DNA of 64,000 bases from Ignavibacteriota bacterium (GCA_963776275.1 CAVZMI010000007.1:39681-103680); one strand, 5' to 3'. Numbered from the stretch's first letter, positions 3,812-18,761 are shown. Notes: generated from the letters alone by a model not told the origin. Translations and numbers: made by a program.

Positions 3812-4564
3812 TTGAGCAATAATATTGAGGTTAAATTACTACAGTGGAACATCTGGTATTTAGAAAAGGTTGATGGTATAGTAGATGTTCTTCGTGAATT
3901 GGACGCAGATATACTATGCTTACAGGAGCTTAGTGGGAATACGGAAATTAATAAAAAAATAGAGACTGATTCTTATATCCATAAAAAGTTGGGATTGCAC
4001 TACTATAGTGCTAAATCACAAGAATGGATAAACTGGCATAAAGATTATCAAGCTAATGGGATATTCAGCAAATACACAATAAAAAAAGGGAGGAATATAT
4101 TTATAAAGAAACCTCATTCAAAGAAAGCGAGAGATTATTCAAACGAAGGGAGAATATACATAGAGGTTGAATTGAATATTAGTGGGAAAACACTTTTTGT
4201 AGGGACAGCCCATCTTTCTTACATACACAAATTTGAAATAGGCGATAGGCGATGTGCCGAAGAAAATAACTTATTAAAAGCACTAACTAAAAGAAAAAAA
4301 TTTTTATTTTGCGGCGATCTTAATGCACCGCCGGATTCAAATATCTATAAAGCATTATCAAAAAAGTACAGACATTGCGGCCCAGAAATTACTCAAAAAA
4401 CCTGGACAACAAAACCATTCAGTCATAATGGTTTTATAGAGAATGATTTAAATTGGAGATTAGATTACGTATTTGCTTCAAGAGATATAGAAATAATCGA
4501 AACAAGGATAATACAAACAGATGTTTCTGATCATCTTCCTATAATGGTAAGAATAAGGTTATGA
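3812..4564 (+). CDS. Endonuclease/exonuclease/phosphatase (EEP) family protein
   Basis: QWNIW, DILCLQE, HL, GDLNA, RLDYVF and SDHLP catalytic motifs. Confidence 0.9.
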   Translation: MSNNIEVKLLQWNIWYLEKVDGIVDVLRELDADILCLQELSGNTEINKKIETDSYIHKKLGLHYYSAKSQEWINWHKDYQANGIFSKYTIKKGRNIFIKKPHSKKARDYSNEGRIYIEVELNISGKTLFVGTAHLSYIHKFEIGDRRCAEENNLLKALTKRKKFLFCGDLNAPPDSNIYKALSKKYRHCGPEITQKTWTTKPFSHNGFIENDLNWRLDYVFASRDIEIIETRIIQTDVSDHLPIMVRIRL

Positions 4565-5235
4565 TAAAAAATAAAATAGACGATTATTTGAAGATAACAA
4601 TAGAGACGTATGAAAAAAATGCAGAAGAATATAAAATACATAGAAAAGACGCTAGTCCTATAGCAGAATTAGAAAAATTAATCTCTTATTGTAATGGTGG
4701 TTATATTCTAGATGCTGGATGTGGGCCGGGAAGAGATACTATATGGCTCTTAAATAAAGGAATTAAAGCCTTTGGAATAGACCTTTGTGATTCTTTTTTA
4801 CGAATTGCGAGAGAAGATTCAGGGATTAATGTTTTTGCTAAAATGAATCTTTTAGAAATGTCATTTCTACAAGAAACGTTTGATGGCATTTGGTGTTGTG
4901 TAGTTTTATCTCATTTAAAAAAATCACTGTTAATAAATGCATTGATAGAACTCAATAGAGTATTGAAACGAGGTGGCGTTTTATTTATTGCTGTGAAAAA
5001 AGGTAGTGGAGAAGGTTTTCAGGTTGAAAAGGAATTTGCCGATAGTCCGAGATATGTATCATATTTTTCAGATGAAGAAGTATTAATTGCCATAGAAAAA
5101 TCAGGATTTAAAACCCTAGAGCAATACTATTATAATGAGTATAAACGACATAGAGGAACTCATAGGGATATTGACTATATATTTAATTTTTCTAAAAAAG
5201 TAAAACAGCAATTGACAGCTGATATTGCTGCATAA
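4561..5235 (+). CDS. Class I SAM-dependent methyltransferase
   Basis: ILDAGCGPGRD motif I, FDGIWC, RVLKRGG. ATGA overlap with the EEP gene stop codon. Confidence 0.9.
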   Translation: MIKNKIDDYLKITIETYEKNAEEYKIHRKDASPIAELEKLISYCNGGYILDAGCGPGRDTIWLLNKGIKAFGIDLCDSFLRIAREDSGINVFAKMNLLEMSFLQETFDGIWCCVVLSHLKKSLLINALIELNRVLKRGGVLFIAVKKGSGEGFQVEKEFADSPRYVSYFSDEEVLIAIEKSGFKTLEQYYYNEYKRHRGTHRDIDYIFNFSKKVKQQLTADIAA

Positions 5236-7421: not shown

Positions 7422-7566
7422 TCTGCGACGTGAAATGCTGGAAGATATGATGCAATTGTCCATCATTGAATGGTTATTATGGTCAGACTAATTCGTTGGC
7501 AAAAATATTTTGCCGTCATAGTTATCAGAATAAACTAGAAAACAGGAAAAATATTTACTGAGAGGC

Positions 7567-7607
7567 AAGTCGACTCTATGTAGGTCGACTCGGCGAGTCG
7601 ACCTACA
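7567..7607. repeat. Palindromic repeat downstream of the nuoN remnant
   Basis: TGTAGGTCGACTCG-G-CGAGTCGACCTACA hairpin. Confidence 0.6.
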
Positions 7608-7618
7608 GGTGGTCATTC

Positions 7619-7825
7619 CTATCGCAACCCTAACATTTTCACAGATGCAACTGCAGCATTGACGATCGGCGAGAAATACAAACCGAATCCCAATGTCGGG
7701 ATTACAAGCAGCATAACGATCGCAATCTGCCACACACTGAAATAAATAGGTTCTTTTGATTCTTCGGCTTCTCGCAGAAAGAGATTACGCAATATTCTGA
7801 CATAATAATAAAGCGAGATTACACT
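7619..7825 (-). pseudogene. nuoN: C-terminal remnant of NADH-quinone oxidoreductase subunit N
   Basis: Hand translation (absent from the ORF track): SVISLYYYVRILRNLFLREAEESKEPIYFSVWQIAIVMLLVIPTLGFGLYFSPIVNAAVASVKMLGLR*. No start codon; in-frame stop just upstream. Confidence 0.8.
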
Positions 7826-7899
7826 TGAGATTTAAGAAGATAAGTATAAAAGAGCATCTTTTAGTTCGATGAAGATTGCACAAGATTTTTTTAAAAATG

Positions 7900-9885
7900 C
7901 TACTGAAGTCCTGAGGCAACGATCTCGGCAATATCTTTAACGCGAATTATCTTTGCCTTCTCATCCTTCAGCCCATCCTCGAACATGGTCAGACAATAGG
8001 GACAGGTGACACACACCGTATCAGGGTTTTGGACAAGAGCTTCTTTAATCCGGGTGAGGTTGATCCGGGAACCTAAGCTTTCTTCCATCCACATCCTGCC
8101 TCCACCAGCTCCGCAGCAGAATGAGTTTTTCCTGTTTCTTTTCATCTCGGCAGGAGCCATACCTGTGGTGATTTTTATCGCCTGGCGCGGTGCATCATAA
8201 ATTTCATTGTGCCGCCCCAAGTAGCAGGAGTCATGAAAAATAACTTTTCCAAGTTGTGTCACTTTTTCATTGACCCTTAATTTCCCTTCCTTAAGAAGAA
8301 TGTTAATCAACTCGCTGTGGTGGACAACTTCGAGATTTAGGCCATACTGCTTGTAATCGTTTTTCAGAGTACTGAAACAGTGGGGACATTGGGTGATAAT
8401 TTTCTTGACTCCTTTTTCCTGGAAGAGTCTGACATTCTCTTTGGCTATTCTATCAAAAATGAATTCATTGCCGAGCCTTCTAAGGCTGTCCCCGCAGCAT
8501 TTCTCGTCTTTGCCTAAAATTCCCCATGAGATACCGGCTGCATTAAGGATTGTGGCCAGGGCCAGGGTCACTTGTTTGTTACGGGAATCAAAAGCGCCCG
8601 CGCATCCTACATAAAAAAGGTATTCTGTATCGCCGGCCGAAAACTGCTTGACATTATGTCCGGATGTCCATTTCGAGCGCTCCGCCGGGGCAATGCCCCA
8701 AGGATTACTCCGCTGTTCCATGTTTTCAAAGAGATTGAGAAGCTCCTCAGGAAATTTTGCCTCCAATTCCACCAGATGGCGTCTCATCTTGACGATTTTA
8801 GGCATGTGCTCGATGAAAACAGGGCAGACCTCCATGCAGGCACCACAAGTCGTGCAAGACCAGATCGCGCTCTCCTGATTGATGCCTTCGCCGCCGCTTC
8901 CGATAAGAGGGAGTGTGGGAGTTCCGTCTTTTTTCAAAATCGGACCGTTTCTCAAGAGATTAATCTTAATATCATGAATAACCTGCCGTGGATTGAGAGG
9001 CTTTTCCGTATTCGTTGCAGGGCAGACATCCTGGCATCTACCACATTCTGTGCAGGAGTAAGAGTCGAAGAGGTCTTTCCATGTGAAGAGGTTCACCCTT
9101 CCCACACCAAAAGTATTCCCTTTTTTAAATTCCTCCCTGGGCTGAGTATTCGGCTTTTCAAGGCTTTTGAAATAGCAATTAGGAATTGATGTCATGATGT
9201 GCATATGTTTGCTGAGGGGGAGAACATTGATAAAAGTCAGAAGCACGAGAGCATGGAGCCACCAGAAGATATCCTCCAAGAATTCTAGCCTGGAAGGAAA
9301 AACGCCAGCCAAGTATCCCGCAGCAAAAGAAGAGATAGGTCTGTAATTGCCGGCAGCTTCTTTGCCTGAAGCAATTTCAACCGTATGCATCCCGAAGAAA
9401 GCAATCATCAGCAGGGCTATGAAGGTCAGAATAAGAAAAGCCTCGAAGCTCTTGGCCTTTACATAGGGAGTGCTCAAGTAAGCAGGAGCAAAGAAGATCC
9501 GTCTGCTAAACGCGATGAGGATGCTGATGAGAGTCGTGAGGGAAATGATCTCGAAGATAAATGAAATAGGATAATAGACATCTACAGGGAGATGGGAGAG
9601 ACTGATTGACGGGAAAAGGCCATGCATGAGGAACTCACCATTGGCGATGATCAGTATGATGAACGACCAGAAAATGACAAAATGGTTGAGACCGAAAACA
9701 CGGCTCACGACCCTTTTTTGACCAAAGGCATAGAAGAGCATAGCCCAGATTCTTTTGAAGAAATGACTAAAACGGTCTTCGGGTTTCCCGAAGGTGATCA
9801 AACTGAAGCGTCTATAGCAGCTCCATACAAATAAAGCCATAGAAGTTGCAAACAATAAGCCGAAAATAGTCGTATTATGTGACAT
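7900..9885 (-). CDS. Membrane-bound Fe-S oxidoreductase (FadF/HdrD-like, NarI-like membrane domain + 2x[4Fe-4S] + CCG domains)
   Basis: TM region with WWLH and SKHMH. CTECGRCQDVCP and CTTCGACMEVCP ferredoxin motifs. Two CCG motifs. Confidence 0.9.
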   Translation of the reverse strand: MSHNTTIFGLLFATSMALFVWSCYRRFSLITFGKPEDRFSHFFKRIWAMLFYAFGQKRVVSRVFGLNHFVIFWSFIILIIANGEFLMHGLFPSISLSHLPVDVYYPISFIFEIISLTTLISILIAFSRRIFFAPAYLSTPYVKAKSFEAFLILTFIALLMIAFFGMHTVEIASGKEAAGNYRPISSFAAGYLAGVFPSRLEFLEDIFWWLHALVLLTFINVLPLSKHMHIMTSIPNCYFKSLEKPNTQPREEFKKGNTFGVGRVNLFTWKDLFDSYSCTECGRCQDVCPATNTEKPLNPRQVIHDIKINLLRNGPILKKDGTPTLPLIGSGGEGINQESAIWSCTTCGACMEVCPVFIEHMPKIVKMRRHLVELEAKFPEELLNLFENMEQRSNPWGIAPAERSKWTSGHNVKQFSAGDTEYLFYVGCAGAFDSRNKQVTLALATILNAAGISWGILGKDEKCCGDSLRRLGNEFIFDRIAKENVRLFQEKGVKKIITQCPHCFSTLKNDYKQYGLNLEVVHHSELINILLKEGKLRVNEKVTQLGKVIFHDSCYLGRHNEIYDAPRQAIKITTGMAPAEMKRNRKNSFCCGAGGGRMWMEESLGSRINLTRIKEALVQNPDTVCVTCPYCLTMFEDGLKDEKAKIIRVKDIAEIVASGLQ

Positions 9886-9921
9886 GTGTTTTTCTATCTA
9901 CAAAATTCAATGGTCTCTTAA

Positions 9922-11244
9922 CTAGCGATTCCTTTTAAGTTCTCGAATGCGGTTCGTAAGAGCAGGGACAACTTCAAAAAGGTTTCCCACGATTCCGTAA
10001 TGGGCGATCTGAAAAATGGGCGCGTCTTTATCACGGTTAATAGCGATTATTGTGTCGGAGTTTTGCATCCCAACTAGATGCTGGATGGCTCCGGAAATTC
10101 CGCATGCGATGTACACCTTTGGTCTTACCGTCTTTCCAGTCTGGCCGACCTGGCGTTCCAGAGGCATCCAGCCCGCATCCACAGCGCTGCGTGAAGCTCC
10201 AACAACTCCTCCCAGCTCATCCGCCAATTCCTGGAGGAGCGCAAAGTTATCCTTGGCCATCATCCCTCGGCCGCCAGAGATGATGAAATCAGCGCTGGCA
10301 ATGTCGACGAGCTCTTTATGTTTGGCATCAGAGAGAATCTCGAGGACTTGGGCCAAAACATTCTCCTCTTGAATGGGGCAGGTCTCTCTGATTATTTCCC
10401 CCTGCTTTCCAGTTTTATATTCTGGCATTGGCATAACGTGGGGACGTACTGTTGCCATCTGCGGTCGAAACTTTTCGCAGAGAATGCTGGCCATTATGTT
10501 GCCGCCGAAGGCCGGTCGGGTTTGAAGCAAATGTCCCTTATCCGTTATGGAGAGGCCGGTACAGTCTGCCGTCAGACCAGTTTTTAGCCTGGTTGCCACA
10601 GCCCCAGCCAAATCTCTTCCTAACCCTGTGGCTCCCATAAGCAGGATTTCGGGTTTATATTTCTCCACAAGATAGACAACACCTTCGAGATAAGATACCG
10701 TGCGGTAATTCTTAAAAATCGGTGCATCAAGGAGATAAGCCTGCTGTACGCCATAGGCGAATGCTTCCTGACAGAGGTGTTCGACTCCATGACCGATGAC
10801 AACCGCGGCAAGCCCCACATTCAGACTCTTGGCCAGGTTGGCACCCACTCCAAGCAGCTCCCAGGATACCTTAGCCGACTCCCCTTCTGTCTGTTCGACG
10901 AAAATCCACACTCCCTTATAGGGAGCAATTCTCTGAGCTACAGTCGCTTGCTCTTCATCAACTTCTTCGACAGTCGCGGCAGGCTTGGCTTTCTTTTTGA
11001 ACTCTTCTAGAATTTTCAATTCTTCAGGAGTGAAGAACATTTCCAAGGCATCAACAGGGCAAACTTTCAGACACTTGATGCATCCGATACAATTGGGGAT
11101 AATAATGATAGGCTCGCCCCGATCATTCATCTCGATAGCATCTGTAGGGCAAACAACCTGGCAGCGCGCTCCGCAGGCGATACATTTACCCTCAATTAAC
11201 CTGGCTTTGCCTCGAGGTTTTTTAATCGGTTTCTCCACCGTCAA
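9922..11244 (-). CDS. etfA: Electron transfer flavoprotein alpha subunit with N-terminal 2x[4Fe-4S] ferredoxin
   Basis: CIACGARCQVVCP and CIGCIKCLKVCP. GLTADCT, RPAFGGN, QVGQTGKTVRP and GISGAIQH motifs. Confidence 0.95.
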   Translation of the reverse strand: MTVEKPIKKPRGKARLIEGKCIACGARCQVVCPTDAIEMNDRGEPIIIIPNCIGCIKCLKVCPVDALEMFFTPEELKILEEFKKKAKPAATVEEVDEEQATVAQRIAPYKGVWIFVEQTEGESAKVSWELLGVGANLAKSLNVGLAAVVIGHGVEHLCQEAFAYGVQQAYLLDAPIFKNYRTVSYLEGVVYLVEKYKPEILLMGATGLGRDLAGAVATRLKTGLTADCTGLSITDKGHLLQTRPAFGGNIMASILCEKFRPQMATVRPHVMPMPEYKTGKQGEIIRETCPIQEENVLAQVLEILSDAKHKELVDIASADFIISGGRGMMAKDNFALLQELADELGGVVGASRSAVDAGWMPLERQVGQTGKTVRPKVYIACGISGAIQHLVGMQNSDTIIAINRDKDAPIFQIAHYGIVGNLFEVVPALTNRIRELKRNR

Positions 11245-11259
11245 TCCTCAACATAAAAG

Positions 11260-12072
11260 TCAAAAATTAAGAATTTCCTTCTGAATGAGCTTCTGAACCA
11301 GAAGCTCAACCGCTCCTTCAGGGTCTTTGATTCCATCTCCGAGAATTTCCCCCTTCTCGCGCTCGGGGGAAAATATTTTCGTGACCCACGTGGGTGATCC
11401 CCTTAGGCCGACAGAGAATGTATCCAGATTCAACACCCTATTATCCCAGATTTTAACTTCTGCTTCCTCTGAGAGAAGTCGTCTTGGAACGTTAGGATAG
11501 CGGGGGCGGTTTATTTCTCTGACGACTGTGAGCAGTACCGGGAGTGGGGCTTCGACGATCTCATGCCTTCCTTCGAGTTTCCTTCTTACCCTGATCTTCT
11601 TGGCTTCAGAATCGAGATGCTCAATCCTGTCTACAAGGGTGAGCTGGATATAATTGAGGCGGGTAGCGATTCCAGGCCCAACCTGGGCGGTATCCCCGTC
11701 TATCGTCTGTTTACCGCAGATGACAAGTCCAACTTCCTCTTTCTGGGAAAGTTTTTGGATGGTTGCAGAGAGGACGTGACTTGTGGCCAGGGTATCCGCT
11801 CCAGCAAAAACGCGGTCAGAAAGGAGAATCGCCTCATCCACTCCGAGGGCAAGGGCTTTTCTCAGAGTTGCCTCCGCATTGGGAGGGCCCATCGAGATCG
11901 CTACCACTTTGAATCCAAACCTGTCTTTTAGCCTTAGGCTTTCTTCCAGAGCATGAGTGTCATAAGGATTGATGATAAATGGAATTCCCTCGCGCACCAG
12001 AGTATTGGTCACAGGATCCATTTTCACCTGCGTAGTATCCGGGACTTGTTTGATGCAAGCTACGACTAACAT
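11260..12072 (-). CDS. etfB: Electron transfer flavoprotein beta subunit
   Basis: CIKQVPDT, INPYD, GADTLATS and GKQTIDGDTAQVGP motifs. Confidence 0.95.
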   Translation of the reverse strand: MLVVACIKQVPDTTQVKMDPVTNTLVREGIPFIINPYDTHALEESLRLKDRFGFKVVAISMGPPNAEATLRKALALGVDEAILLSDRVFAGADTLATSHVLSATIQKLSQKEEVGLVICGKQTIDGDTAQVGPGIATRLNYIQLTLVDRIEHLDSEAKKIRVRRKLEGRHEIVEAPLPVLLTVVREINRPRYPNVPRRLLSEEAEVKIWDNRVLNLDTFSVGLRGSPTWVTKIFSPEREKGEILGDGIKDPEGAVELLVQKLIQKEILNF

Positions 12073-12140
12073 ACTTCCTTTCTTCCTTTCCCGAAGCTGT
12101 CTAAAAAGTAATTTTCCCCCCGATAACCTGGCAGAAGCAA

Positions 12141-12185
12141 AATTTCAATGTTACTTTTTCCGAATTGTGCATCAAGTAAACCCAT
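12141..12185 (-). pseudogene. nuoB: N-terminal stub of NADH-quinone oxidoreductase subunit B
   Basis: ATG 12185 with AAGGA RBS just after nuoA. MGLLDAQFGKSNI resembles Chlorobi-type NuoB starts; similarity ends before the conserved W..ACC motif. Confidence 0.6.
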
Positions 12186-12256
12186 ACGGGTGTCCTTCAA
12201 ATAAAAACGTCCCAAAAAAAATAAGGAAGGAGAGCACCGGCTCTCCTTCGCACATT

Positions 12257-12688
12257 TCAAACAGATATTTCTTCTTCGGATGGCGCAACGACACCGACGC
12301 CCGGCTCATAATGAGGCAGACAAGGGGCCGGTTTGTCCCAGTCCAGATCACCCTTCGTCCATGCATAGACGAAACCGACGCCAAGGATAACAATGAAGAC
12401 AACCATCTCGAGAAATGCGAACATCCCCAACTGTTTGAATACCAACGCCCACGGAAAGAGGAAAACTACTTCCACATCAAAGATGAGGAAGATGAGAGCA
12501 ACTACATAGAAACGAATGTTGAAGCGGATCCACGGACTACCCACAGGCGATTCGCCGCATTCATACGTTGTAAGTTTCAGTGTTGACGGCCTTTTAGGCC
12601 GCAGTATCCATGTTGCTAAAAACCCCAGCGCTACAAAAACCCCACCCACGATAAAAAACAGAAGAACTCGCCCAAAGTCGGTAAACAT
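12257..12688 (-). CDS. nuoA: NADH-quinone oxidoreductase subunit A
   Basis: TYECGE and [23 protein letters not shown] motifs, [10 protein letters not shown]. Confidence 0.95.
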
Positions 12689-12963
12689 CAGGCTTTTTAT
12701 CTCCAGAGAAAATGGATTGTCTTGAAATAAAATTTAAGCTATAAAAATGTACGAAGAGATGGAAGAAGAATCAAGATAAAAAAATGATCTATGAAAGCTC
12801 TGAACATTTTCGATTTCGGATTTATGATTTCCGAGTTTACTGTATAAATGTAATTTTGAAGCTACGTTATACCCTGAATGGATAGAGGATAATCCTTAAT
12901 ACAGAATAGTATCAACAACAAACACTGATATTTCTCTCTTTATGCATCGGTGTTCTGTCATAA

Positions 12964-14009: not shown

Positions 14010-16070
14010 TTATCTTACCAGTACAAGTTTCTTCGTTTCCGAAAATGTTCCTGATTCCAGCCGATAGAGATATACTCCACTTGCAGCGTCTTTTGGACTC
14101 CACTCGGAAGAATACGAGCCTGCCTGAAGATGCCGGGAAACCAGCATCTCGATTTCCTGCCCTAACAGGTTGTAGATTTTCAACGTAGTATAACCCGGCT
14201 TTGGTATATGAAAGTGAATTATCGTAGTCGGGTTGAATGGATTCGGAAAGTTTTGCTCCAGGATGCAGCTCTCTGGCACCGGGGCGCGTAGATCTTCAAT
14301 AGAAGTTGAAAACTCGGTTAAGGGTCTGCGCCACACTCCCTGGCCGTTGGTACCAGCAATGAGTTCGGAGCCACTTACAGTTAAGGCGTTCACTTTCTTA
14401 AACGTCAAGCCTGAATTTACTTCATTCCAGTGACCACCGTTGTCGTCGGTAACGAAGGCACCGCCCATGGTCCCGGTGAAAAGATAGGATCCGCTTATCG
14501 CAAAGGAAAGGATGTTTTGATTAGTTAAATTTGTATTGACATGTGTCCAGCTGTCACCATCATTGGTGGATAGATAGACACCGCCACTGGAAGTTCCGGA
14601 AAAGAGATTGACACCGTTAGCGATAATAGCAACTACGTCTGGAGGCACCAAACCTGAAGATTTTTGTGTCCAATGAGCGCCATTGTCGGTCGATAGAAAG
14701 AGACCACCGCCCCACGTCCCGGCATAGGTATCCCATCCATTGACAGCAAGAGAATAAATAAGCGTGTTTGTCAAACCGGTATTGACCTGTGTCCAATTGC
14801 CACCACTGTTCGTGGTAAGATAGACACCACTCATTGTGCCGGCGAAGAGATTCGTCCCGTTGGCGGCGAGGACAGAGACATACATGTTTGTCAAACCTGT
14901 ACTAACCTGAGTCCAAAAACCGCCGCTGTTGGCTGAAAGAAAGACACCGCCGCCAGCTGTCCCGGCAAAGAGATTTGTGCCGCTAACTGCAAGCGCACGA
15001 ACATCAGTAGCTGTCAGTCCGGTATTGACTTGAGTCCAACTGGTTCCGTTATCAAGAGAGAGGAAAACGCCGCCTGTTGTCCCGGCAAAGAGATGGGTAC
15101 CAATCGTCGCAAGAGCATTTACATTGGAATTCTTCAATCCTATGCTGACCTGGAGCCAGCTGGTGCCGTTGTTTGTCGAAAGGAAAACACCGCCGTAGGT
15201 ACCGGCAAAGAGGTTCCAACCGCTTACTGCAAGGGCACAAACATAAGTACTTGTCAGTCCTGTAACTACCGGAGTCCAGCTGGTCCCGTTGTTTGTAGAT
15301 AAATAGACACCGTTGTTGGTGCCGATGAACGTATTGGTGCCGCTAACCGCAATTGCATAAACAGGATTAATTGGTATTCCTGTGGTTACATTCGTCCAAC
15401 TGGTTCCGTTATCTGAGGTAAGATATATTCCAAACCCAGTACCAGCGAAGAGATTTGTACCGCTGACCGCAAAAGATAAAATGGTGGTATGTGTCAAACC
15501 CGAATCGACCGGAGACCAGCTCGTTCCGTTATCAGTTGAAAGGAAGACTCCTTCGAGGGTACCGGCAAAGAGACTTGTGCCGAGAGCCGCAAGAGCATGA
15601 ACAGAAACACTTGTCAGGCCTGCACTAGCGGAAGTCCAGCTATCGCCGTTATCGGTCGAAAGGAATACTCCATTCAAAGTTCCGGCATAGAGATTGCCGC
15701 CGCTGACCGCAAGCGAGTACACAATACTCGTTGTTATACCTGTACTGACCTTGGTCCAACTGTCCCCGTTATCTGTGGAAAGAAAGACGCCGCCATCAGT
15801 CCCGGCAAATATATTCGTGCCGCTGATTACTAAAGCATTAACATAACTATTTGTTAAACCGGTATTAATAGAAGACCAACTACTCCCATTATCAGTGGAA
15901 AGAAAGGCACCGCCTCCTTCTGTCCCGGCGTATAGATTCGAACCGCTGATTGCCAGGGTATTCACAATACCGCCATACGGTCCGCTGGTTTGTATCCACT
16001 GAGCTTTAATTGCGCGTTCGGGAAATATGAGAATCAGTATGACCGCGAGCAGGGAAATAAAATGTCTCAT
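14010..16070 (-). CDS. BNR/Asp-box repeat beta-propeller protein with T9SS C-terminal sorting domain
   Basis: About 14 repeats of LFAGTxGGVFLSTDNGxSW. C-terminal QNFPNPFNPTT...SGVYLYRL...KKLVLVR. Confidence 0.9.
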   Translation of the reverse strand: MRHFISLLAVILILIFPERAIKAQWIQTSGPYGGIVNTLAISGSNLYAGTEGGGAFLSTDNGSSWSSINTGLTNSYVNALVISGTNIFAGTDGGVFLSTDNGDSWTKVSTGITTSIVYSLAVSGGNLYAGTLNGVFLSTDNGDSWTSASAGLTSVSVHALAALGTSLFAGTLEGVFLSTDNGTSWSPVDSGLTHTTILSFAVSGTNLFAGTGFGIYLTSDNGTSWTNVTTGIPINPVYAIAVSGTNTFIGTNNGVYLSTNNGTSWTPVVTGLTSTYVCALAVSGWNLFAGTYGGVFLSTNNGTSWLQVSIGLKNSNVNALATIGTHLFAGTTGGVFLSLDNGTSWTQVNTGLTATDVRALAVSGTNLFAGTAGGGVFLSANSGGFWTQVSTGLTNMYVSVLAANGTNLFAGTMSGVYLTTNSGGNWTQVNTGLTNTLIYSLAVNGWDTYAGTWGGGLFLSTDNGAHWTQKSSGLVPPDVVAIIANGVNLFSGTSSGGVYLSTNDGDSWTHVNTNLTNQNILSFAISGSYLFTGTMGGAFVTDDNGGHWNEVNSGLTFKKVNALTVSGSELIAGTNGQGVWRRPLTEFSTSIEDLRAPVPESCILEQNFPNPFNPTTIIHFHIPKPGYTTLKIYNLLGQEIEMLVSRHLQAGSYSSEWSPKDAASGVYLYRLESGTFSETKKLVLVR

Positions 16071-16401
16071 GGTATGGCTCCCTATTTTGTGGGTGAATGA
16101 GATAGGCAAATGCAACCGATGGATGATAAATTACCCTGCGTCAATCACCCCGATTGAGCACGATATCCGTTTTGAATCGTTTGAATATATATTCCATTTC
16201 TATCATCAATTCCCTCGCATAAAAAATCATTGAATGCAAAATGTATCGTTTAGTTATTTCATGAGGGGCGGTACCCCTATTTTACTGTAAGTATAAATAG
16301 AAAATTATCCATGCAATTTTAAGGAATTGCTCTTTGAAATGCAATTAATGCTCAGAAAAAGCCGTGAAGATTGCCGATTTTCGGGTCTCGTATCTAAGAC
16401 T

Positions 16402-17381: not shown

Positions 17382-18761
17382 ATGGCACTCTGGAGCGGTC
17401 GTTTTAAAGAGCCTCTGTCTGAAATCGCATTGCGATTCTCTTCTTCGATAGACCTTGACAAGCAGCTCTATCAGGAAGATATAGCCGGCAGCGTTGCGCA
17501 CATTGAAATGCTTGCCGCTACGGGGATCATCCCGGCATCCGACGCAAGGCACATCCGTACCGCTCTTTATCAAATTAAAAAAGAAATCGAAACCGGAAAG
17601 CTCCAGCTCTCCTGGGATAAAGAAGACATTCACATGGCCATCGAGCAGCGGTTAATACAGAAAATCGGACCGATTGGCGGGAAAATCCATACCGCACGAA
17701 GCCGAAACGATCAGGTTGGACTCGACGAGCGCCTCTATCTCCGGACCGCAATCGGAGAAATTTCAAAGCTACTGGTCAACCTCCAGCGCGTACTAGTTTA
17801 TAAAGCTAAAAAATATTTCGGACTTGTGATACCGGGTTATACTCACCTGCAGAGAGCACAGCCGATCCTTTTTTCACATCATCTACTCGCGTATATTTCG
17901 ATGCTTGAACGCGACCATGAACGGCTCAATGACTGCCTGAAACGTATCAACCGGTTACCACTCGGGGCGGCCGCGGTTGCAGGAACATCCCTCCCTATCG
18001 ATCGTGCCATGGTGGCCAGAAAGCTGGGGTTCACCTCAGTCCTCGAAAACAGCATTGATGCAACCAGCGACCGTGATTACATCATCGAGTTCCTTGCGGC
18101 CGCGAGCATTATTATAATGCACCTGAGCCGACTCGGCGAGGAATTGGTATTGTGGAGTTCGCGGGAATTCGACTTTGCGCAGATAAGCGATGCATATACT
18201 ACCGGCTCAAGCATCATGCCGCAAAAGAAGAATCCTGATATGGCAGAACTAATGCGCGGGAAAAGCGGACGGGTTTTCGGCAACCTGATAGCTATGCTCA
18301 CAATCATGAAGGGGCTCCCGCTGGCATACAACCGCGATTTACAGGAAGATAAAGGTCCGCTGTTCGATACTGTTGCCACAATACGGCAGACGCTCCATAT
18401 CGCGTCGCACATCCTTGTCCATACAAAATTCAATAAGAACCGATTCATAAAAGAAATGGAGACCGATTTTCTTACGGCGACCGACGTTGCCGAGTATCTC
18501 GTTACAAAGGGCGTTCCGTTCCGCGAGTCACATTCAATTACCGGCAAACTTGTTACATACTGCATGGAACACAAGAAACCGATGAGCGCTCTGACTCTCA
18601 AAGAGCTTCACCACTATTCAAAAGAATTTTCGAAAGATGTTTTTGATGCCATCGATCCACAGAAGAGCGTTGAACGAAAGAAATCTGCAGGAAGCACTTC
18701 GCCGCAGGAAGTGAAAAAGCAAATAATACACTGGATGAAGCTGCTTAAAAGCAAAAAATAG
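17382..18761 (+). CDS. argH: Argininosuccinate lyase
   Basis: LWSGRF, EDIH, HTARSRNDQ, PGYTHLQRAQP and TGSSIMPQKKNPD motifs. Confidence 0.97.
   Translation: MALWSGRFKEPLSEIALRFSSSIDLDKQLYQEDIAGSVAHIEMLAATGIIPASDARHIRTALYQIKKEIETGKLQLSWDKEDIHMAIEQRLIQKIGPIGGKIHTARSRNDQVGLDERLYLRTAIGEISKLLVNLQRVLVYKAKKYFGLVIPGYTHLQRAQPILFSHHLLAYISMLERDHERLNDCLKRINRLPLGAAAVAGTSLPIDRAMVARKLGFTSVLENSIDATSDRDYIIEFLAAASIIIMHLSRLGEELVLWSSREFDFAQISDAYTTGSSIMPQKKNPDMAELMRGKSGRVFGNLIAMLTIMKGLPLAYNRDLQEDKGPLFDTVATIRQTLHIASHILVHTKFNKNRFIKEMETDFLTATDVAEYLVTKGVPFRESHSITGKLVTYCMEHKKPMSALTLKELHHYSKEFSKDVFDAIDPQKSVERKKSAGSTSPQEVKKQIIHWMKLLKSKK

Follow-up and report, generated by a model that had tools for sequence, protein, structure and literature searches.

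What becomes of a respiratory operon when its two ends stay in place and another electron-transfer module lies between them? This question is raised by a locus of Ignavibacteriota bacterium GCA_963776275.1, of which a 64,000-nt stretch (CAVZMI010000007.1:39681-103680; hereafter the window) was analysed. At positions 7619-12688, on the minus strand, the order is nuoA, a NuoB-like start, etfB, a ferredoxin-fused etfA, a reductase of the EtfD/EMO type and a 68-codon NuoN tail; etfB and etfA encode an electron transfer flavoprotein (ETF), and EMO is an ETF:(methyl)menaquinone oxidoreductase. Comparison with relatives indicates that this is very probably a real, inherited, lineage-specific genome rearrangement of known parts, at the site of a former NADH dehydrogenase (NDH-1) operon.

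The window's own genome (G000) was compared with a sister species of the same genus (G001), with a member of the same family but a different genus (G002), and with further relatives, 40 being searched in all. The features on which the argument turns are:

12257..12688, minus strand: nuoA, intact, 143 aa (PF00507, E 2.4e-38), first gene of the former 11-gene NDH-1 operon
12066..12185, minus strand: chimeric 39-codon open reading frame (ORF), whose ribosome-binding site, start and first 13-17 codons are those of nuoB and whose remaining codons are unrelated
12094..12140, no strand: left junction interval; NuoB homology ends at ~12135-12140, and homology to the G002 cassette-upstream sequence runs from ~12093 (local DNA alignments)
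11260..12072, minus strand: etfB, 270 aa (PF01012, E 7.9e-39)
9922..11244, minus strand: etfA with an N-terminal 2x[4Fe-4S] ferredoxin domain, 440 aa
7900..9885, minus strand: predicted EtfD/EMO-type membrane ETF:menaquinone oxidoreductase ('FadF-type'), 661 aa
7826..7845, no strand: right junction interval; NuoN homology starts at 7826-7833 (from the G002 cassette and the intact tails P0002 and P0003)
7619..7825, minus strand: NuoN C-terminal remnant, 68 codons (7622-7825) plus stop, directly after a TAA stop
17382..18755, plus strand: synteny-anchor gene, 72% orthologue of the G002 gene that stands divergent beside nuoA (contig C7:57062-58435)

An earlier sequence-only reading of this DNA had listed nuoA, a NuoB-like start with its ribosome-binding site, etfB, etfA and an Fe-S/CCG protein, and all of these are present. 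The NuoA protein belongs to PF00507 (Oxidored_q4), which it matches with 130.7 bits against a cut-off of 23.3 over profile positions 4-99 of 99; its score stays below the stricter cut-offs of the NCBIfam NuoA equivalog models (122.9 vs 163). It is 70% identical to NuoA of G002, and its rate of change is not raised relative to G002, the unique changes being 8 vs 10 and 9 vs 11 with two outgroups. The nuoB-stub ORF, which starts at 12185 with MGLLDAQFGKSNI, has its own GAAGGA ribosome-binding site and a stop that overlaps the etfB start (ATGTTAG). Three relatives with an intact operon have NuoB starting at the same place after nuoA, with MSLLDSRFEKSNI, MGLLDKQFGTSNV and MGILNYKFEKSNI, and 8-10 of the first 15 residues of the stub agree with NuoB of G002, G022 and G026. 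Holding 13-17 NuoB-like codons only, the stub is not a member of PF01058 (Oxidored_q6, the Fe-S cluster N2-binding domain), matches to which lie on contigs C12, C18 and C20 of the own genome and not at the studied locus.

The 68-codon tail has no Pfam match, and is matched in 38 of the 40 relatives, in 36 of them at the very C-terminal end of a 491-525 aa open frame (35-64% identity, E 9.5e-9 to 8.5e-22). The frame that holds the match is 70 aa long in G001 and 212 aa in G002, and among the relatives searched the tail was without a match in G006 (99% complete) and G020 (67% complete). In databases, proteins that end in this tail have a PF00361 domain and bear the name NuoN in their source. Membership of NuoN is defined by PF00361 (Proton_antipo_M), ~14 transmembrane helices and ~500 aa, and only the last 68 codons are present here; by homology the tail is a NuoN remnant, not a NuoN. 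The matches in relatives thus bear out the earlier identification of both fragments, the tail as C-terminal NuoN and the stub as a NuoB start.

What once lay between the two fragments can be read from G002, where nuoA and the tail (62% identical) stand 10.9 kb apart in an uninterrupted nuoABCDHIJKLMN operon that has no E, F or G. The nuoA side of the window is still at the ancestral place, because the orthologue of the G002 nuoA neighbour is nearby, 4.7 kb from nuoA (tblastn with G002 flank proteins); the orthologue of the downstream neighbour in G002 is on a different contig of the own genome. No other nuo remnants were found in the own genome at E <= 1e-4 with G002 proteins as queries. With an intact G002 operon between the orthologues and both junctions mapped, the proposal of the sequence-only reading that nuoB to nuoN were deleted, with ~4.3 kb of an ETF module in their place, is upheld. 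The nuoN gene of the intact G002 operon (L023 12678-14173) is itself split, its frames measuring 289 aa and 202 aa and the match containing one TAA; that operon may be starting to decay as well, or the TAA may be a sequencing error.

The G001 alignment, 91.9% identical over 4,529 nt, begins at the etfB start, crosses the right junction and ends 60 nt beyond the tail stop. Further upstream G001 still has the sequence 5' of nuoA, ~5 codons from the start and ~11 from the end of nuoA, and a hairpin described below, and is without ~382 nt of nuoA and ~116 nt carrying the nuoB stub. Since G001 later deleted most of nuoA together with the stub, both are dispensable relics. On the left side of the window, homology to the G002 cassette begins ~22 nt before the etfB start codon, and on the right the G002 cassette remains alignable for ~55 nt past the EtfD stop. 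One further feature crosses the right junction:

7793..7862, minus strand: near-invariant block across the junction, with 2 differences/70 nt between G000 and G001

The surrounding difference rate is 11.7%, and the probability of two or fewer differences in the block at the local rate is 0.0085; a weak hairpin at the 3' end of the cassette is included in it. The block makes up the 70 nt directly 5' of the TTG at 7792 that is treated below.

The sequence-only reading had also drawn attention to an 8/9 inverted repeat at the two junctions (7825-7833 and 12140-12148). The repeat exists, and as a recombination signal it was rejected as chance: when 2000 size-matched pairs of segments were drawn at random from the window and scored for a 9-mer inverted match, 324/2000 were equal or better, and direct 9-mer matches from one junction zone to the other reach 7/9 at best. 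The locus does not qualify as an insertion of an insertion sequence or transposon, the repeat being at chance level and the Pfam and NCBIfam tables of the scanned ORFs holding no transposase or integrase; the small remaining ORFs of 7.4-13 kb were only read for this purpose, not family-scanned. A metagenome contig (L119) found with a 40 nt junction-pattern scan is 100% identical to G001 over 6,432 nt, and was dropped as an independent case. A search of sequencing runs listed no RNA run and one DNA run (0.14 of sampled words), which gave, at 85% likeness, 20 short pieces from conserved genes of other organisms; neither junction was bridged, an outcome that has no bearing on the junctions or on expression.

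The inserted cassette encodes two ETF subunits and a membrane reductase. EtfD has two CCG stretches (PF02754, E 8.3e-37) and Fer4_8 and Fer4_9 domains at residues 276-357, the motifs expected of its family. Its residues 10-645 align with Mycobacterium smegmatis EtfD (9OJN) at E 3.7e-115; the heme b ligands His78 and His241 of 9OJN correspond to histidines in the window protein (GLNHF, KHMHI), Phe230 is conserved, and H68 and H229 of the window EtfD are invariant in 13/13 aligned cassette homologues. Residue numbering, heme b histidines and quinone-site phenylalanine of 9OJN follow section 8 of PMC13083937. EtfD and the Syntrophus EMO are described as single-chain ETF:(methyl)menaquinone oxidoreductases (PMC13083937; bioRxiv 10.64898/2026.08.18.745454), and the Syntrophomonas wolfei homologue has been modelled as one too (PMC5101538). 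From homology and the adjacent etfBA we infer that the window EtfD is an ETF:menaquinone oxidoreductase that would reduce menaquinone. The label 'FadF-type' used in the sequence-only reading suits it, given Bacillus subtilis BSU37180, which we take to be FadF/YwjF. That protein is among the EMO sequences aligned in the Methods of the EMO preprint cited above.

EtfA carries Fer4_7 at residues 20-66, ETF at 112-286 and ETF_alpha at 314-394, the ferredoxin domain forming the first 70 residues. Its best PDB match is CarE (6FAH, E 1.2e-107); five bifurcating ETFs range from E 1.2e-107 to 5e-77, whereas the human and Paracoccus ETF alpha subunits reach about E 1e-46. EtfB, which is 96% identical to its G001 counterpart, matches the five bifurcating ETFs at E 2.6e-69 to 2.9e-51 and non-bifurcating ones at E 2.8e-26 or weaker. 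By similarity both subunits are therefore far closer to the structurally characterised bifurcating (group 2) ETFs than to non-bifurcating ones.

The cassette was not newly gained at the swap, because G002 carries its orthologue at another locus, between a second etf/EtfD-like cluster and hydrogenase-like genes (EtfB, EtfA and EtfD 88.5, 87 and 82% identical). EtfD-like genes occur in 38/40 relatives searched, including G001 and G002, and outside these two the best match is 38-51% identical (38-44% if near-full-length). The own genome has two paralogues, one of Ignavibacteria type on C23 (41%) and a third EtfD on C34 (31%). Among species representatives, the EtfD homologues that follow one at 90% are from Geobacteraceae (60-68%) and Dehalococcoidales (59-64%). 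In a quick maximum-likelihood tree of EtfD (89 rows; 2/88 loci left out as partial) the sequences of the window, L039 and G002 cluster together (SH-aLRT 100) and are nested in a group made up mainly of Geobacterales (28 rows at 94; 32 rows at 98), and the C23 paralogue joins copies that are from the same order or bear Ignavibacteria titles (16 rows at 99). Of 80 loci kept by the scan, 11 foreign ones were examined and 11/11 have the order etfB-etfA-etfD, these being titled Geobacteraceae, Dehalococcoidales, Dehalococcoidaceae, Deferribacterales or Deferribacteraceae. The simplest history suggested by these comparisons is that the family acquired the cassette horizontally once and that it then moved to the nuo locus in the genus.

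A reciprocal junction at the former site of the cassette was sought beside the C34 etf cluster, where no remnant was found; that region is 97% identical in G001, and 326 of its 3,370 nt matched G002, on a different contig. This cluster is a second one conserved in the family (G000 C34:97378-104401, G002 L036 5142-12195), and comprises etfB, etfA, an EtfD-like protein of 676-681 aa, a CCG protein of 402-415 aa and a 669 aa protein. In G002 it stands back to back with the studied cassette.

Whether respiration was altered depends on what else the genome encodes. The sequence-only reading had proposed a swap of the respiratory entry point, from a proton-pumping complex to an ETF:quinone system. 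A complete nuo operon elsewhere was what that reading had named as removing its physiological interpretation, and the genome does hold a nuo set of 14 subunits: nuoABCD followed by NuoE- and NuoF-type genes on C12, a NuoG-type gene upstream of nuoHI on C27, and nuoJKLMN on C32. The retained set is thus a dispersed one of 14 subunits at three other loci, and the lost operon was NuoEFG-less, so that the swap, in the form proposed, lacks support. Antiporter-like genes number 3 in G001, and G002 has 7 matches, equal to two sets. A comparable pair of NDH-1 sets, of 14 and 11 subunits, is reported for Ignavibacterium album (PMC3362086), and Melioribacter roseus has a dispersed 14-gene nuo set (PMC3534657). 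According to the I. album paper the 11-gene NuoEFG-less NDH-1 should not work as an NADH:quinone oxidoreductase, and a similar point is made for the NuoEFG-less set of M. roseus in PMC3534657. We consider it highly probable that the net change is the loss of one of two NDH-1 enzymes, with complex I retained and the respiratory entry point unchanged.

Two candidate expression signals were recognised around nuoA:

12746..12774, minus strand: weak sigma-70-like promoter candidate 5' of nuoA (TTGATT, 17 nt spacer, TACATT), read by eye
12226..12249, minus strand: terminator-like hairpin directly 3' of the nuoA stop, with a 10 bp stem, 4 nt loop and T run

The promoter candidate scores 8/12, under the scanner threshold, and lies within a block that is near-identical in G001 (G000/G001 alignment). 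The hairpin, with 6 G-C pairs in its stem followed by CTTATTTTTT, has the makings of a predicted intrinsic terminator and is the first and best terminator-like site listed by a scan of the region. It is kept in G001 with an extra A in one arm and a matching extra T in the other, and no such hairpin was seen in the nuoA-nuoB interval of G026 and G022.

At the other end of the locus the question is whether the NuoN tail is debris or a small gene. Two features belong to it:

7619-7792, minus strand: ORF of 57 aa with a single helix; the TTG at 7792 is the sole canonical in-frame start
7580..7606, minus strand: near-perfect palindrome of 27 nt just 3' of the NuoN-tail stop, which has no T run and is present in G001 too

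Homology between G000 and G001 stops ~20 nt past the palindrome, at 7559. The palindrome was considered as a repeat element and rejected, its 12-mer arm having 3 genome matches of which 2 are its own arms. Between G000 and G001 the tail has 24 differing sites, of which 4 fall at first, 1 at second and 19 at third codon positions (chi-square p 9e-6). The ratio of non-synonymous to synonymous divergence (dN/dS; Nei-Gojobori) is 0.086, from 17.5 synonymous and 6.5 non-synonymous differences, and is 0.14, 0.19 and 0.13 for etfB, etfA and etfD. Lineage-specific residue changes are 5-6, vs 9-10 in the G002 tail, without a speed-up. As judged from the sequences, all differences between the G000 and G001 tails postdate the shared truncation. 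A 64 aa call, P0001, 84% identical to the tail, was dropped as a third truncated copy; it is most likely a contig-end piece of an intact gene, because longer NuoN proteins with nearly the same tail exist (P0002, 325 aa; P0003, 498 aa). The codon pattern suggests, with slightly better than even confidence, that the tail evolves like coding sequence and is translated under selection. That the 57 codons form a newly independent gene for a small membrane protein, with a new start and purifying selection, is a more tentative proposal, a little short of an even chance. Such a protein may be expressed with, and serve, the adjacent EtfD-type menaquinone reductase; a complex prediction run without controls, pairing EtfD (13 aligned rows) and the 57 aa tail (6 rows), scored 0.00 against a mark of 0.32, which speaks neither for nor against such a role.

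Three other explanations have to be weighed. The nuoA and nuoN pieces and the cassette might come from separate organisms and have been joined in assembly or binning, as the 38 contigs and an estimated contamination of 5.3% could suggest; the region, however, lies inside a 104 kb contig, and G001, a different species at 92% nucleotide identity, has on a contig of 307 kb a right junction that agrees at every base, and also holds a derived form of the left side. Because two species share one junction, a chimeric assembly, which the sequence-only reading had named as a way in which it could fail, is extremely improbable. Another explanation keeps the rearrangement and gives it a physiological meaning: the cassette, under the nuo promoter, would functionally replace a proton-pumping NADH dehydrogenase and so change the respiratory entry point. 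It lies 3' of nuoA on the same strand, and a short ORF preserves the ribosome-binding site and start of nuoB; with the stop of this stub overlapping the etfB start, translational coupling would be possible in G000, G001 being without the stub. After its two further deletions G001 keeps the nuoA upstream region ~190 nt before etfB, with the near-identical promoter-like block inside it. Yet that region is only 75.6% identical between the species, one block excepted, a terminator-like hairpin conserved in both stands between nuoA and etfB, and cassette and intact operon coexist in G002; with a 14-subunit nuo set elsewhere in the genome and no NuoEFG in the lost operon (PMC3362086, PMC3534657), such a replacement is unlikely.

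The remnants could also be neutral debris, nuoA, the nuoB stub and the tail alike, with the codon pattern of the tail due to chance or to recombination with lineages that have an intact nuoN. The loss of nuoA and the stub in G001 agrees with this, as do the missing ribosome-binding site of the tail with its sole TTG start, the variation of synonymous divergence (dS) along the locus, and the existence of intact NuoN tails 81-82% identical (P0002, P0003), which are conceivable donors for gene conversion. The concentration of 19/24 differences at third positions and a dN/dS as low as that of the cassette genes (0.13-0.19) do not fit it, and the tails of G000 and G001 are each 13 differences from P0003 and share 7 derived residues, which makes import into one of the two species look unlikely; we regard debris as rather doubtful, though with an appreciable share of the probability. 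For the inherited rearrangement, the retained complex I and the selected tail, as we read them, there are points on the other side of the balance as well. The ends are without a mobile-element gene or significant repeat that would point to a mechanism of exchange, and ~45 nt at the left junction match neither parent. The junction is shared by one further genome, and the selection inferences rest on one sequence pair. The synonymous divergence is uneven, 0.12 for etfB/etfA, 0.39 for etfD and 0.50 for the tail, and the history of the locus may be mosaic. The tail TTG has no upstream Shine-Dalgarno-like sequence, which nuoA, the nuoB stub and etfB all have, and its replacements include radical ones (R to C, G to E, G to R). 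Finally, the word 'complete' is qualified for the retained nuo set by its nuoM (C32:102862-104347), which is in two frames; the shift is of one base in a C run around 103660, the G001 frame of 540 aa is intact, and the shift may be an assembly error or a recent frameshift.

Taking the inherited rearrangement as the preferred reading, the following history can be proposed. The ancestor of the genus would have carried the 11-gene nuoABCDHIJKLMN operon conserved across the order, from which ~10 kb were lost, reaching from about codon 15 of nuoB into nuoN and sparing the last 68 codons of the latter. The 4.3 kb etfB/etfA/EtfD cassette, which the family would have acquired horizontally from a Geobacterales-like donor before the move, now lies exactly in the gap, probably through illegitimate recombination; G001 would later have deleted most of nuoA and the nuoB stub. 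By homology, the ETF would take electrons from acyl-CoA dehydrogenases, or from NADH/ferredoxin if it is bifurcating, and these would reach menaquinone by way of the EtfD Fe-S clusters and heme b, with no proton pumping.

The flanks of the locus were also inspected. Between a hydrolase and the nuoA-promoter remnant G001 has three extra genes (L022 296-4095), encoding proteins of 467 aa and 539 aa and a cysteine-rich ORF of 191 aa, which the window is without. At window positions 14010-16115 lies a 701 aa protein of ~40-residue 'SxDxGxSW'-type repeats with a G001 relative that is 46-49% identical; the relative is on the other side of the cassette in G001, so that a shuffling of the flanks separates the two species. 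A 224 aa ORF at 4561-5235 has a G+C content of 0.30-0.33, against 0.41-0.53 in its neighbours, and this stretch may be foreign DNA.

The locus is of interest as a clean and datable example of the remodelling of a respiratory gene set, in which an order-wide NuoEFG-less NDH-1 was lost in one genus and its slot was taken by a horizontally acquired ETF:menaquinone cassette, which possibly also took over the expression signals of the lost operon. Selection on the tail after loss of 86% of its gene would, if confirmed, indicate a route to new small membrane proteins, a small-protein gene born from an operon remnant. The pairing of a bifurcating-type, ferredoxin-fused ETF with EtfD/EMO matters too: the two structurally known EtfD/EMO enzymes are described with a plain ETF in the parts of the literature available to us. 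In those same parts no description of a bifurcating-type ETF encoded with EtfD/EMO was found, which is not a claim of its absence from print; the supplement of the EMO preprint (Supplementary Table 2, Figures 13-14) may classify the clade.

Among known systems, the window reductase is most like the EtfD of mycobacteria (9OJN; M. tuberculosis Rv0338c) and the EMO of Syntrophus aciditrophicus, with which it shares a single polypeptide, an N-terminal membrane domain, two cubane 4Fe-4S motifs, two CCG (non-cubane cluster) domains and a position beside etfBA. Unlike mycobacterial EtfD, it has 661 vs 1042 aa and is without the ~260-residue disordered C-terminal region. In S. aciditrophicus the ETF partner of EMO is reported to be non-bifurcating, with AMP in EtfB (PMC8805022; EMO preprint), whereas the partner ETF in the window resembles the bifurcating class and carries a ferredoxin domain. 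The best matches of both its subunits are the bifurcating ETFs CarDE (6FAH), EtfABCX (7KOE, the Thermotoga maritima EtfAB of that complex), Acidaminococcus fermentans (4KPU), Clostridioides difficile (5OL2) and LctBC (7QH2). An N-terminal 2x[4Fe-4S] domain in one ETF subunit recalls the Car complex (PMC6085437), and a pathway ending at menaquinone recalls EtfABCX/Fix (PMC10734219; PMC6085437), of which the cassette may be a membrane-bound counterpart in the case of EtfABCX. It differs from the bifurcating ETF systems in having no gene for an acyl-CoA, caffeyl-CoA or lactate dehydrogenase and no EtfC/FixC, its quinone-reducing partner being EtfD/EMO. The window nuoA, nuoB start and NuoN tail are orthologous to the ends of the 11-gene operon of Ignavibacterium album, Melioribacter roseus and green sulfur bacteria; unlike there, only the two ends survive, so that no such enzyme comes from this locus. 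Both the arrangement and the pairing of a bifurcating-type ETF with EtfD are variants on known kinds, put together from parts of known families.

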